Assembly (NCBI GenBank): GCA_963708025.1
Contig: CAVPSB010000002.1
Coordinates: forward strand, 355,930 to 419,929
DNA from: an uncultured Candidatus Rokubacteria bacterium
GTDB taxonomy: Bacteria > Methylomirabilota > Methylomirabilia > Rokubacteriales > DASRDR01
Reading direction: 5' to 3'
DNA length: 64,000 bases
Under the pieces are notes generated by a model. The model ran no database searches, was not told the origin of the DNA, and worked only from the letters and a program-made list of their open reading frames with translations. The position numbers were made by a program, and so were the translations under genes. Shown one piece after another: positions 45,159-50,303 of this stretch (its first letter is position 1; the number at the start of each line of letters is the position of its first letter).

Positions 45159-45968
45159 TCACCCCGCTGCTGACTGATGCACGGTGCACGCGCAGGCCGG
45201 CTGGTGGTACCGCCCGCTGCCTTCCACCGTGCCACCCCTTCCGTACATGTTCTTCGGCCGCACCCAGTCGGCGAGACTGTTGTAGGGCCCATCCTCACTC
45301 CGCCCCTTCGGCGTCACGTCGAGATACCGGTAGACGCCCAGGAACTCCTCGCCGCCGCGCCCATAGGTCGAGTAGGTGTGGAAGATATGGCCGCCGTCGT
45401 CCTTGAAGAAGACGCTGTCGCCGGACAGGTCCTCGAGTCCGGGATTCGCGTATTCGTAGTTGTAGAAGGCGCGGCCTGCCGCGATCTCGTCGGGCCTGAA
45501 TGAGACGTGGAAGTCATAGTTGAAGTCGGAGTGGTACGACGAGACCCACGTGAAGCGCCACCCCATCTGCTGGCGGACGCCTTCGATCTCCCCGATCGGC
45601 GCGCGCGCCACGACGGCGTACGACACGTCATGGTTCTGCAGATGCACGAGCGCGCCCTCGATATGGTCGACCTCGAGGGAGCACCCGACGCACTGGCCGA
45701 CTTGGCCGGGCCCCATCATGAAGTGCTTGACGAAGAGCTGGCTGCGGCCGTCGAAGAGATCGGCCAGCGTCACCGTGCCCTGCGGTGCGTCGAAGACGTA
45801 CGGCTTCTCCACCTTCACCCAGGGTAATGCCCGGCGCTCGGCAGCCAATCGGTCGCGAAGCCGCGTGAGCTCCTTCTCCTTCGCCAGGAGCGCCGTGCGC
45901 GCATCGAGCCATTCCTCGCGCGAGATGACGCGGTGCAATGGAGCGATACCTCTGGCGGTGTCGGTCAT
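45159..45968 (-). CDS. DUF899 thioredoxin-like protein
   Basis: REEWL.AR..LL.KEKELTR, RRALPWV, LADLFDGRSQL, CVGC, SDFNYDF, HTYSTYGRG, LDVTPKGR. Confidence 0.9.
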   Translation of the reverse strand: MTDTARGIAPLHRVISREEWLDARTALLAKEKELTRLRDRLAAERRALPWVKVEKPYVFDAPQGTVTLADLFDGRSQLFVKHFMMGPGQVGQCVGCSLEVDHIEGALVHLQNHDVSYAVVARAPIGEIEGVRQQMGWRFTWVSSYHSDFNYDFHVSFRPDEIAAGRAFYNYEYANPGLEDLSGDSVFFKDDGGHIFHTYSTYGRGGEEFLGVYRYLDVTPKGRSEDGPYNSLADWVRPKNMYGRGGTVEGSGRYHQPACACTVHQSAAG

Positions 45969-46072
45969 GGTCTCTCCTCCTATCCCGCCTCGAAGCGGCG
46001 AGAGGTTAGATTCGTACTGGTCGGTATGCATCCGGGCTCGCAACCCCTCTGGGCGCCTCCTCTTGCTGGATA

Positions 46073-46099
46073 GTCGAGCGGGCCGGCCCCAGATCGACA
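46073..46099 (-). promoter_or_regulatory. ECF42-type promoter upstream of DUF899 gene
   Basis: TGTCGA-N17-CGAC on the minus strand. Confidence 0.65.
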
Positions 46100-46424
46100 T
46101 GGTCGTGTCCCCCAGGTGCGCAAGGGTCGAAGGCGTCGCCACGGGTTCTCCCGCCCCCGTCCTCCCCGGCTTGCCGGCGTGCGACGGGCTCAAGGACCGC
46201 TGGCCTCGCCGAGCGTGCCCCGTCGAGGGCCTCGGCCGTGTCAGAGTGGGGGGTGAACCGCCGATGGTCTCGAGGCCGCGACCCCGTCACCTGTCGGCCC
46301 GGAGGCCCCTCGGGATGGACGCCCGGTGTATTCCGATTACGGTCGCGAGCCATCGCTCGACCGCTCGATCTACGGAGACGCTGATTTGGGGAACGAGGCC
46401 CGCCGGTCAGCCGTGCGCTCGGCA

Positions 46425-47185: not shown

Positions 47186-47217
47186 ACATGAGACATATCA
47201 TCGCAGAAGGAGAGACT

Positions 47218-47829
47218 ATGAGCCGTAGCCTCGCCCGACCTTTGTTGGCGGCCACCGTTGTCGTCGCGCTCGCCACGCTCGCCGTGGCGCAACAGGGGCA
47301 AAAGCAGCCGGAGATGACCCCCGCGCAGAAGGCCGAAATGGAAGCGTACATGAAAGCCGGCACACCGGGCGGGCCTCACCAAGCGTTGGCATCGTCGGCC
47401 GGCAACTACGACCTCCAGATCAAGAGCTGGCACGAGCCCGGTGCGCCAGCGATGGAAGACACCGGCACCGCGACACGCGCCATGGCGCTCGGCGGCCGTG
47501 TGCTGGTCGAGGAAGTCAACAGCTCGATGATGGGCATGCCCTTCACGGGTCACGGGATGATGGGCTTCGACAACGTGACCGGTAAGTACTGGTCCACGTG
47601 GAGTGACAGTATGTCCACCGGCATCATGGTGAGCGAGGGCACGTGCGACTCCCAGAAGAAGACCTGTACCTTCACCGGGAGTTGGAACGATGCCCTCAAA
47701 AAGGGCCCAGTGACGGCGCGCATGACCACCCGCTGGACGAGCCCGACGACCGAGGTCTTCGAGATGTACGGGCCGGGCAAGGACGGCAAAGAGATGAAGA
47801 TGATGGAGATCACCTACACCAAGAAGTAG
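47218..47829 (+). CDS. DUF1579 domain exported protein
   Basis: Signal peptide; AGTPG.PH..L...AG.Y, MMGMPF.G.G..GFDN...KYWSTW.DSMSTG, MEITYTK. Confidence 0.8.
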   Translation: MSRSLARPLLAATVVVALATLAVAQQGQKQPEMTPAQKAEMEAYMKAGTPGGPHQALASSAGNYDLQIKSWHEPGAPAMEDTGTATRAMALGGRVLVEEVNSSMMGMPFTGHGMMGFDNVTGKYWSTWSDSMSTGIMVSEGTCDSQKKTCTFTGSWNDALKKGPVTARMTTRWTSPTTEVFEMYGPGKDGKEMKMMEITYTKK

Positions 47830-48093
47830 CACCAGGGTCCTCTCGAGGGATCGAGCGGTCAGGGCAGGGAGCGGCGGCCGACCTGGCGTCTGGAGTCATC
47901 ATCCGGCCGCCGTAGCGTGGGCACCCACCCGCGGAAACGCCGACCAGGTGGTCCCGGCCATCCTCGCGTTCCTCAAGTGGCAGCCGTATTCATCTGTGTT
48001 CCTTGGGAGCGTCTCAGGGAGTGTTCCGGGAACCAGTGATCCCTGCACGGGGGTTGATTAGGTTGCACTGTGTGGGGAAGGAGGAGATGAGAG

Positions 48094-48744
48094 GTGGCCT
48101 TTGTGGGATCGCGGCGGGCCGTCCAGCCAGGAGAGCCGGCCCCGAACTTCGAGGTGTCGGCCGTGCACCACGAGGGGGCCGTATCGCTCGCCGACTACCG
48201 TGGCAAGCGTCCGCTTTTCCTCGCCCTCTATCGTGGGCTGTACTGACCATTCTGCCGGCGGCACGTTGTGCAGCTACAGACCACGGCAGAGAAGCTTCGG
48301 CAGGTAGGCGTTGAGACGTTGGGGATCGTCGGGTCGGCGGTGGAGCGTGTGCGCTTCTATTTGCGGTTCCGTCCAAGCCGTTGCGTGCTGGGTGCCGATC
48401 CAGACCTGACCACCCACCACGCCTACGGCTTGCCTCAGAGTTTGCTGACGACGGAAGTCTGGGGTGCCGTCGAGTCTGCCGCCAGGAGTCTGGCCGGCGG
48501 GCTTGGAATACGGGTGCCTGAATCAGGGGCGACGGAGGCTATCGGTCGACTGGATGGCTTCGAAACGACGGACAGTGAGCGCGAAGAAATGGAACGACAC
48601 CAGGCGCAGTTCACCGGGCAGTTCCTCATTGACCGCGAGGGTGTTGTCCGATGGTCGAGCATCGAATGCGCCAGGGAGGGTCTTGCGGGGATCGACAAAT
48701 TCCCGAGCGATGAGGAGGTGCTGGCTGCGGCCAAGTTGCTCTAG
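48094..48744 (+). CDS. AhpC/TSA (peroxiredoxin-like) protein, probable selenoprotein (UGA 48244-48246 = Sec, UxxC)
   Basis: GEPAPNFEV..V....VSLADYRGKRPLFLALYRGLY[TGA]PFCRRH in frame with ORF 48268-48744 (ADPD...H.AYG, FLIDREGVVRW); GTG start behind AGGAG; SECIS-like hairpin. Confidence 0.85.
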
Positions 48745-48861
48745 ACGATCCGGCCCACCGGATTGTGTTGCGTGGTCACGTCCAGTGTTGAATCGGAAGC
48801 CGCGCCCTCGATTTTCCACATCAAACGGGGCACCAGCGATGATCGTCGCCAGAGAAACACC

Positions 48862-49214
48862 ATGACAGAGAGACGAAAAGATGTAAGCGCCTATATTGCA
48901 GCTGCCCCAAGCGAGGTACGAGCTAAGCTCACACAGCTTCGCAAGATTATCAAAGCCTCGGTGCCCAAAGCCGATGAGGGTATTAGCTACCAGATGCCCT
49001 ACTACAGATATCACGGCGCGCTTGTGGGGTTCGCCGCGTTCAAGAACCACATAGGACTGTTTGTCCCGCCGCCCGTCGTGGAGGAGCACAAGCATGAACT
49101 TGAGGGTTACGAAGTCGCTAGGGGAACTGTCCGCCTTCCAATCGACAAGCCGCTTCCCATCCGCTCATAAAGAGACTGATCAAGGCGCGAATGAAGAAGA
49201 ACGAGGCAAAATAG
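48862..49214 (+). CDS. DUF1801/YdhG-like protein, frameshift near 49160
   Basis: V.AYIAAAP..VRAKL.QLR.II...VP.A.EGISYQMP.Y...LVGFAAFKNHIG; tail LIKRLIKARMK in another frame; visibly lower GC. Confidence 0.8.
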
Positions 49215-50303
49215 AAGAAATAGGAGATGCTCACCGAGATGGGCCAGGCGAAGCGAGCACAGGAGGCGTGGGACCAGGCGCGGCGGCTGAGCCCCGGCGC
49301 TTCTCCCGCACAGCTCCGGCAGCGTCTGCCGTATCGGCGGCCGGCCGACCTGGACCGCTTTCTCGCCGCCGTGGCGAAGCTCCAGTAGAGTTCGGGCGGC
49401 TGTGCGCCGAGTGACCGGTGCGGTCAGGCAAGGGTCCCCCGATGCCGAGCGACGAATCCGGAGCCGCAGTCCCCGGGGGCTCCGGCGAGCCAGGAGTTGC
49501 CGCCATCGGTCGCTGACAAGCCGGCGCGCAAGATCCTTCAAGCCACGGGCTGATCCGGGAGGTACCTTCGAAGCATGATGCTGCACCGCCCGATCGAAGG
49601 CCACTGGGTTCAGGGAGTGTGGTCATGCCAAAGAGCCTCCGGAACGTGACGCCACTGCGCCGGGCAGATCTGACCGTTGAAGAAGGTGCTCGAGGGTCAC
49701 CAATGAAACGGGGCCGCGACAGTCTGGCTGACGTTCATCGGGATCACGCTGGGAGGTCTGACGATGACACACCTCCAAGCGGAAGAGCAGGCGGGCTTCC
49801 ATACTGTCCTCGGGGCGCCGGGTCGCTCGCCCGCGATCCCCGACTCGATGGACGCCTACGGGTGGCTTATCGGGAGCTGGGACCTGGAGGTCCTTCGACC
49901 GGAACGCTCCGGACGTGGTACCGCGTCATCTGCCGCACCACGGCGTCGAGGCCTTCTGCGGGTTCCACCGTCGCGCACCCGTAGGCTCGACGGACCCGCC
50001 GTTCCGGTGGTTCCCGTGGCAATCCCCCCGCGAAACTGGATACCCGCAAGGTGTGGGGAGCGGAGCGGACGGTCGGTCTCGACAAGGACGCCTCGCAGGA
50101 CCCCGCGGCCAGCTCGAGACCGACGCCCGCGAGGCTCTGGGGCGACCTCTGCAACCTGATCTACGACGAGGCGATGGTCCGGCGGGCGAAGGCTGACCAG
50201 GCGATCGCGACGGCGAAGCGCGCGACCGATGATCCCTGACACCCCGGCTCCCGGGGACCGATGGCGACGGCGCGATCCGCAGCACGCGCCGGAGTGCCCT
50301 TCA

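Follow-up and report, generated by a model that had tools for sequence, protein, structure and literature searches.

Does a TGA codon within a redoxin gene end that gene, or does it encode selenocysteine (Sec, U)? The question is raised by positions 48094-48744 of a 64,000-nucleotide stretch of DNA (the window: positions 355,930 to 419,929 of the forward strand of contig CAVPSB010000002.1, assembly GCA_963708025.1) from an uncultured Candidatus Rokubacteria bacterium. A first-pass annotation, made from the letters alone, had proposed that an AhpC/TSA-like redoxin is split here by an in-frame UGA, and that standard pipelines would truncate it. Our analysis leads us to regard it as very probable that these positions form one Sec-encoding redoxin gene of 216 residues, with an AhpC/TSA fold and a U-P-F-C active site. 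The locus has a single frame, a TGA at a cysteine (Cys) column, selection on both halves of the gene and the predicted fold, in a genome with Sec machinery, and Sec forms show constraint at the RNA level past the UGA. The proposal of a Sec-containing redoxin gains its support from the shared TGA/Cys column, from selection, from constraint at silent sites and from the Sec machinery, each of which is considered below.

A single reading frame on both sides of the TGA

The list of open reading frames (ORFs) holds two entries in one frame, 48094-48246 (50 aa, GTG start, TGA end) and 48268-48744 (158 aa, GTG start). When the TGA at 48244-48246 is read through, the two become one protein of 216 residues with no other in-frame stop, which contains GEPAPNF, VSLADYRGK and LALYRGLY-U-PFC-RRH. 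The observations that the ORF track starts the gene at 48268 while the same frame upstream encodes a redoxin N-terminus, and that the TGA stands directly ahead of PFC, were both borne out. The GTG at 48094 is the earliest start past an in-frame stop at 48088-48090. The GTG at 48268 has no AGGAGG-like site ahead of it and sits in the 3' arm of the upper stem of the hairpin described below. Full-length Cys-form relatives (81% identity) carry the motif CPFC, and their starts and ends match those of the read-through protein. The G+C content of the DNA is 69%.

TGA and Cys codons at one column of the alignment

A six-frame search of 61 related genomes returned many full-length matches, with exactly one TGA or none. 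When 36 full-length rows were aligned, 11 had TGA and 24 had Cys at the same column, the first position of xxC, and one row was frameshifted (L055). Ten further loci, chosen for carrying TGA, were then added to the alignment, which brought the total to 47 rows (21 U-x-x-C, 25 C-x-x-C and one broken). The TGA shares its column with the first Cys of CxxC in 21/21 TGA rows, none of which has another stop or a frameshift, and as judged from this alignment the position of the TGA is far beyond chance. Homologues with TGA at this column, which the first-pass annotation had made a test of its proposal, are therefore found in 21 of the 47 aligned rows, 10 of these loci having been preselected for TGA. 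A count free of such selection gives one TGA in 28 of 104 matches, in 19 genomes, at E<=1e-35 across 151 genomes of the phylum; 56 of these genomes have a match at that threshold, and the column was verified for the fetched rows only.

Of the best 120 database matches, 95 are full-length CxxC proteins (93 by motif search, P0097 and P0108 by eye). Positions 51 and 54, which flank the PF of the motif, are the only invariant cysteines in a 37-sequence alignment. The ratio of nonsynonymous to synonymous substitution (dN/dS, Nei-Gojobori) was computed against 17 other Sec-form rows, and lies at 0.14-0.73 over the 50 codons before the TGA (15 pairs computable, 2 saturated) and at 0.24-0.59 after it. 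By these values, the gene halves on either side of the TGA are both under purifying selection.

A SECIS-type hairpin downstream of the UGA

The first-pass annotation had also described a hairpin just past the UGA, of the kind known as the bacterial selenocysteine insertion sequence (SECIS) element. The hairpin (TCTG-CC-GGC-G-GCAC[GTT]GTGC-A-GCT-A-CAGA) is indeed present at that place, with the G that opens its loop 18 nt past the last base of the TGA; as evidence on its own it is weak, with a z-score of 0.02 against shuffled sequences. It is part of the local RNA minimum-free-energy fold, and a longer alternative lower stem extends to 48290. In the bacterial consensus given in PMC13188914, the loop has 3-9 nt, the upper stem 4-16 bp and the distance from UGA to loop 16-37 nt, with a G as first or second nucleotide of the loop, in most cases before a G or U, and a minimum free energy of <= -7.5 kcal/mol. 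The window's hairpin fits this consensus throughout, with a loop of GUU (3 nt) on a stem of GCAC/GUGC (4 bp), both at the lower limit; the loop begins GU, the spacing is 18 nt and the best single hairpin has -15.6 kcal/mol.

Because the folding energy is no better than that of shuffled sequences, evidence for the hairpin must come from comparison. A G occupies the first or second place of the loop in each of the 21 Sec rows, with the loop 18-25 nt from the UGA, and their hairpins fall into three classes. Class A, to which the window's hairpin belongs, has an upper stem of GCAC/GUGC and a loop of GUY at 18 nt from the UGA, the upper stem being unchanged in 7/7 orthologues; class B has a stem of CCAGCU/AGCUGG and a loop of CGUGC at 20 nt; and class C has a stem of CGCCC/GGGCG and a loop of AGUU at 25 nt. 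The best hairpin averages -17.3 kcal/mol in Sec rows (n=21) versus -12.7 kcal/mol in Cys rows (n=25), with a one-sided Mann-Whitney p of 5e-5 that is overstated, since related sequences are not independent.

Silent sites provide a second comparison, in which the fraction of identical codons among same-residue pairs was taken over the 12 codons after the UGA and over the rest of the gene. In Sec forms this fraction is 0.82 after the UGA versus 0.50 elsewhere for class A, 0.85 versus 0.67 for class B, and 0.89 versus 0.49 for class C. At the same 12 codons, the four groups of Cys forms give 0.81 versus 0.72, 0.70 versus 0.61, 0.63 versus 0.58, and 0.69 versus 0.71. The ratios run from 1.27 to 1.83 in the Sec groups versus 0.97 to 1.15 in the Cys groups, in a consistent direction among sequences whose kinship makes them non-independent. 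This excess of silent-site conservation after the UGA, found in Sec forms only, supports the predicted hairpin.

Among metagenome contigs matching the window, summed depth is highest where the UGA and the hairpin are (bin 48240-48273; 169 in X1 versus 6-116 in other covered bins). Such a peak is consistent with many relatives sharing the nucleotide sequence of this stretch, contig depth being a poor measure.

Selenocysteine machinery of the genome

The genome (8.17 Mb in 49 contigs, completeness 99.67%) was searched for selA, selB, the tRNA for Sec (tRNA-Sec, selC) and selD, as the first-pass annotation had advised, and all four are present. The tRNA-Sec scores 76.2 bits with Infernal and is called tRNA-SeC, anticodon tca, by ARAGORN; selA (597.8 bits) and selB (371.9 bits) adjoin it on contig C32. 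The selD gene (398 bits) itself contains Sec, with an in-frame TGA in GAG-U-ACK, and a second SelD-like match of 270 bits lies within an open frame of 833 aa (Table 1), which is possibly of the oxidoreductase-SelD fusion type described in PMC2398784. In the 61-genome search, selA was found in 52 genomes, including 20/20 others of the same family, so the Sec trait belongs to the lineage; it was also found in 13 of the 14 genomes that carry the full-length TGA form. Genome-wide reassignment of TGA was considered and ruled out, since a DUF899 gene of the window and selD both terminate in TGA.

The same genome holds a second TGA-bearing AhpC/TSA protein, P0122, outside the window (G000:C13:489146-489460; L059, about 1381-2040, + strand). 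Its U comes straight after Thr in ..DFAPT-U.., the Pfam AhpC-TSA model gives 97.8 bits, and its translated C-terminus looks disturbed; the best NCBIfam model is that of the Sec-containing peroxiredoxin (Prx) PrxU, at only 61 bits versus a cut-off of 270. Weak TGA-bearing matches that resemble it (E ~1e-10, query residues 9-114) occur in most of the related genomes. P0122 probably represents a further overlooked selenoprotein, one that belongs to another Prx subfamily.

Protein fold and predicted chemistry

The read-through protein matches Pfam AhpC-TSA (PF00578) at 53.9 bits, versus a cut-off of 26, over residues 12-187, so that the match spans the TGA and takes in 176 residues for a model of 124 positions. 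PF08534 is matched at 38.8 bits (cut-off 26.6), over residues 11-114 only. An AlphaFold2 model built from the 37-sequence alignment (pLDDT, the per-residue confidence, 92.3; pTM, the predicted template modelling score, 0.90) has a thioredoxin/peroxiredoxin fold, in which residue 51 stands immediately ahead of a helix at 52-70 and DSSP assigns the helices of an insertion to 120-136, 146-153 and 160-169. The best solved folds are all peroxiredoxins, namely Sulfolobus solfataricus Bcp1, human Prx1 and a Burkholderia AhpC-type enzyme, at 15-20% identity and template modelling scores of 0.77-0.82 when normalised by the target; normalised by the query these are 0.56-0.62, with none above 0.62 among the matches listed.

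A HMMER alignment to human peroxiredoxin-2 (PDB chain 5ijt_A) pairs U51 with the Thr, and C54 with the Cys, of T-F-V-C. Classical peroxiredoxins (PxxxTxxC) have a Thr three residues before the peroxidatic Cys; here the Thr column holds U51, and Cys in relatives. None of the NCBIfam peroxiredoxin equivalogs comes near its cut-off, the two best scores being 26.8 versus 140 and 25.5 versus 270. A weak second stretch of the same alignment (0.4 bits) places Thr174 opposite the Arg of the peroxiredoxin-2 motif A-Y-R-G, which we take to be the catalytic Arg. The protein is likely to be cytoplasmic, as its N-terminus, judged by eye, has no obvious hydrophobic leader.

The actual insertion of Sec, the mechanism of catalysis and the nature of reductant and substrate are inferred. 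By homology to the Escherichia coli system, the hairpin at 48251-48280 would hold SelB-GTP together with Sec-tRNA(Sec) at the UGA (48244-48246), and selenocysteine would be inserted there in place of termination. Sec51, at the N-terminus of helix 52-70, would then act as the attacking nucleophile, and Cys54 would resolve the intermediate to give an intramolecular selenenylsulfide, which a thioredoxin-type reductant would reduce again. With this chemistry the protein would be a thiol-disulfide oxidoreductase like the Prx-like selenoproteins, and no classical peroxidase.

Evidence against and alternative explanations

A number of observations weigh against the reading of 48094-48744 as one Sec-encoding gene, and several of them concern the hairpin. 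The 66-nt stretch that contains it folds at -20.2 kcal/mol, versus -20.24 +/- 2.6 kcal/mol for dinucleotide shuffles, and 91 of 200 shuffles fold as well or better. A G among the first two nucleotides of the loop is a loose criterion, as the best hairpins of 15/25 Cys rows have it too. Compensatory pairs number 0, 1 and 0 of the 14, 10 and 12 predicted for the three SECIS classes (7 rows each); covariation is almost absent (1/36 pairs) because no stem varies inside its class, and its absence speaks neither for nor against the structure. Rfam at gathering score gave no match for the hairpin in a scan of the whole window, with no suited SECIS model in Rfam confirmed; the only two matches from a permissive scan of 48200-48330 were on the minus strand and have no bearing here, namely mir-497 (E 0.31) and a viral pseudoknot (E 5.2). 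Beyond the hairpin, the contamination estimate for the genome is 8.18%, and the sel genes lie on contigs C32 and C7, the window on C2. One TGA-form carrier, the 98% complete genome G025 (L051), gave no selA match at E<=1e-50, which may reflect an assembly gap or loss at the first-look filter. None of the sequencing runs listed for window positions 47900-48900 is recorded as RNA, none contains the exact stretch, and the base check described below was made on assembled contigs of close relatives (best run word share 0.42), not on raw reads. Finally, the choice of a thiol-disulfide oxidoreductase over a peroxidase draws on the position of the motif only.

Could the gene simply be dead? A Cys codon (TGC or TGT) is one base away from TGA, two Cys-form paralogues in the same genome (C18:77814-78428 and C13:229557-230168) could cover the function, and the energy of the hairpin lies within the chance range, all of which would suit a pseudogene in which neither half is functional. 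Such decay is nevertheless hard to square with a TGA at one column in 21 rows from many genomes without any other stop or frameshift, with one TGA in 28/104 matches from the phylum, with dN/dS below 1 on either side of the TGA, and with silent sites past the TGA that are over-conserved in TGA forms only; independent nonsense mutation at one column in three clades, each with its frame intact, is unlike decay, and we consider a pseudogene highly improbable. An error of sequencing or assembly, behind which the true codon would be TGC or TGT and the protein an ordinary CxxC redoxin, might be suspected in a metagenome-type assembly of 49 contigs with the contamination mentioned above. Against this, contigs that span the codon come from two independent studies (X1 record 3; X6 records 17 and 18), the TGA recurs at this column in unrelated assemblies, and the same kind of end or start is seen in 24 other shortened proteins of the database, drawn from several sources. 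When the base was checked in these public contigs of close relatives, as had been recommended for raw reads, no difference at 48244-48246 appeared among the 40 differences listed of 110, and we give an error next to no chance.

A further alternative is that the UGA mostly terminates translation, and that the 50-residue peptide, the 158-residue product from GTG 48268, or both, are separate functional units. Sec insertion in bacteria competes with termination, and gene callers do predict the 158-aa product. The GTG at 48268 is, however, without a ribosome-binding site and buried in the hairpin stem, and the N-terminal 50 codons are under purifying selection and share their start with full-length Cys forms; moreover, in the structure model the thioredoxin fold would need both parts, as the strands within 20-46 and the start of the active-site helix precede Val59. 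Mostly terminating translation is in our view very unlikely. Lastly, the gene may encode a real selenoprotein that acts as a peroxidase, like the Sec-peroxiredoxins, and not as a thiol-disulfide oxidoreductase. The fold and the nearest solved structures are those of peroxiredoxins, Cys54 aligns with the peroxidatic Cys, and Cys forms are called 'peroxiredoxin' by the Joint Genome Institute (JGI). However, Sec or Cys stands where the Prx motif T-x-x-C has its conserved Thr, which yields a thioredoxin-type C/UxxC motif, Thr174 stands in place of the A-Y-R-G Arg of peroxiredoxin-2 (in the weak 0.4-bit alignment), and every NCBIfam peroxiredoxin equivalog is far under its cut-off, the best being 26.8 versus 140. 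We regard a peroxidase as unlikely, albeit as a more serious candidate than the three alternatives above. The interpretation that we prefer is a Sec-containing redoxin with a thiol-disulfide type of motif, and it is this protein whose distribution is considered next.

Distribution and exchange of Sec and Cys

Among the 151 genomes sampled, every genome with a match belongs to a single class of the phylum (families f1, f2, f4, f11 and f12), and the redoxin search gave no match in the remaining six families, from which 37 genomes were sampled. NCBI lists homologues at 50-58% identity under the names Candidatus Rokuibacteriota and candidate division NC10. A maximum-likelihood tree built from 43 full-length rows places the Sec forms in three clades that correspond to the SECIS classes; the exception, L031, sits at the base of the class-A clade and has a class-B-like hairpin. 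Two of the three Sec clades also contain nested Cys forms, and the Cys label needs five changes on the tree, at least four of them forced by well-supported branches.

Copies of the gene also occur side by side. A TGA form adjoins a Cys form in G012 (C13:153133-154599, L032), G004 (C185:18329-19606, L034), G082 (C183) and G110 (C244), and three TGA forms share one contig in each of G121 (C98) and G150 (C148). The adjacent Sec and Cys copies of several genomes fit with frequent Sec/Cys exchange, an established picture on which PMC1794560 bears. In G036, a Cys form inside the class-B Sec clade (L050) has kept the stem CCAGCU/AGCUGG (-18.3 kcal/mol), with a loop of CGCCC versus CGUGC; the gene gives the impression of having recently changed from Sec to Cys, its SECIS now in decay.

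It is tempting to speculate that the window gene belongs to an undescribed, lineage-restricted clade of Prx-like proteins with a helix insertion, one in which Sec and Cys have been exchanged at least four times, three unrelated SECIS elements have arisen in the same dozen codons, and Sec and Cys copies often lie in tandem. We put the chance of this at somewhat less than even. If true, the clade would offer a natural series for the birth and replacement of SECIS elements within coding sequence, and would explain part of the unusually large selenoproteome reported for the phylum.

Genomic context

The coordinates of the gene and of its elements, together with those of the two SelD-like matches, are collected in Table 1. 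The redoxin is flanked by genes with DUF1579 (47188-47829) and DUF1801 (48763-49170) domains, and a scan of 47700-49300 for promoters and terminators gave no match. DUF1579, DUF1801 and DUF899 were all absent beside homologues at the 42 other loci inspected (L028-L069); as the neighbours are not conserved, they give no operon clue to the substrate. The DUF899 gene (45159-46193, minus strand, 301 bits) lies 2 kb upstream of the redoxin and ends in TGA. Its Pfam match begins only at residue 86 of a 344-aa ORF, so the real start may be further in. DUF899 proteins are presumably thioredoxin-like; the Pfam entry describes DUF899 only as a bacterial protein of unknown function.

Table 1. Positions of the probable selenoprotein gene, its elements and the SelD-like matches of the genome (window coordinates unless a contig is named; CDS, coding sequence).
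Feature	Position	Strand	Remarks and basis
Shine-Dalgarno-like AGGAGG	48079..48084	+	9 nt upstream of GTG 48094; from sequence
Probable Sec-containing Prx-like redoxin CDS	48094..48744	+	216 codons, then TAG stop 48742-48744; read-through translation
TGA probably read as selenocysteine (U51)	48244..48246	+	first residue of UPFC redox motif; homologue alignment, dN/dS
SECIS-type hairpin in CDS	48251..48280	+	upper stem 48261-48264 / 48268-48271; apical loop GTT 48265-48267
TGC, Cys54, second residue of the redox pair	48253..48255	+	aligns with peroxidatic Cys of peroxiredoxin-2
GTG (Val59), gene-caller start of 158-aa product	48268..48270	+	ORF list, database proteins
Three-helix insertion, residues 120-169	48451..48600	+	DSSP on structure model
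selD, with GAG-U-ACK	G000:C7:91381-92304 (L009)		outside window
Second SelD-like match, 270 bits, in 833-aa open frame	G000:C23:88505-89419 (L010)		outside window

Public annotation and significance

Of the best 120 database matches, 25 are proteins of 146-160 aa without a Pfam domain, most of them called 'hypothetical', and the window's own product P0006 (158 aa) is among these. In 24 of the 25 (P0006 and 23 others) the sequence begins with M/V-Q/L-LQ at the equivalent of Val59, and P0031 (146 aa) begins farther downstream. The suspicion that pipelines truncate this gene is thereby confirmed, by the 158-aa call for P0006 and by the 24 further calls of 146-160 aa. No NCBIfam model reaches its cut-off on either the read-through protein or its Cys relative, so rule-based pipelines will go on splitting the Sec forms.

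The practical value of the finding lies in the correction of annotation, as a family entry would correct selenoproteome counts in a lineage of soil and groundwater. A Methylomirabilota metagenome-assembled genome with 63 predicted selenoproteins is attributed to Deng et al. (2026), as cited in PMC13188914. There is little new biology in the protein itself, since Prx-like selenoproteins with UxxC and frequent Sec/Cys exchange are already established; the occurrence of three SECIS designs in a single family, and of Sec and Cys copies in tandem, is of modest interest for SECIS evolution.

Comparison with known selenoprotein families

NF040769, a SelL-related redox protein, scores highest among NCBIfam models with the Sec form and with P0002, its Cys relative at 81% identity, and the match takes in the N-terminal half with the redox motif (positions 2-106 of 173, or 2-112 for P0002). 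At 55.7 bits (P0002, 54.4 bits) versus a cut-off of 120, and with 105/173 model positions covered, neither protein reaches membership of that family. PrxU (TxxU; NF040737) has the same fold and is likewise a selenoprotein, but its Sec is at the peroxidatic position, which in the window protein is taken by Cys; the Sec of the window protein lies three residues before that, in place of the Thr. The PrxU model gives only 25.5 bits versus a cut-off of 270. With the redoxin family selenoprotein (PF08534) the window protein shares the UxxC motif, the domain match being restricted to residues 11-114. A search of the literature on SelL-related selenoproteins and on selenocysteine in Rokubacteria, at the level of titles and abstracts, returned no paper on the insertion-bearing subfamily.

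Predicted prokaryotic families in Table 1 of PMC13188914 include a 'Prx-like thiol:disulfide oxidoreductase' (PF00578; UxxC, UxxU), as well as a 'Redoxin family protein' (PF08534; UxxC) and a 'Peroxiredoxin-like family protein' (cd02970; UxxS). The Global Ocean Sampling (GOS) study reported 225 Sec and 2,740 Cys sequences of a 'Prx-like 1' family (pfam00578, UxxC; PMC2398784). Prx-like UxxC selenoproteins are an established kind, described since 2004-2008, and the window gene is very probably a new member of it. A 2004 study by Kryukov and Gladyshev is said to be the reference behind the Prx-like entry.

The window protein resembles this kind in its AhpC/TSA domain, in having Sec first in UxxC, as opposed to the T-x-x-C/U of classical peroxiredoxins, in its many Cys homologues, and in a SECIS inside the coding sequence just past the UGA. 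It differs in an insertion of ~50 residues that forms three helices (120-169), which brings it to 216 aa versus a core of 124 positions, and, in a comparison made by description and not with reference sequences, in the restriction of its subfamily to one class among the 151 genomes sampled.

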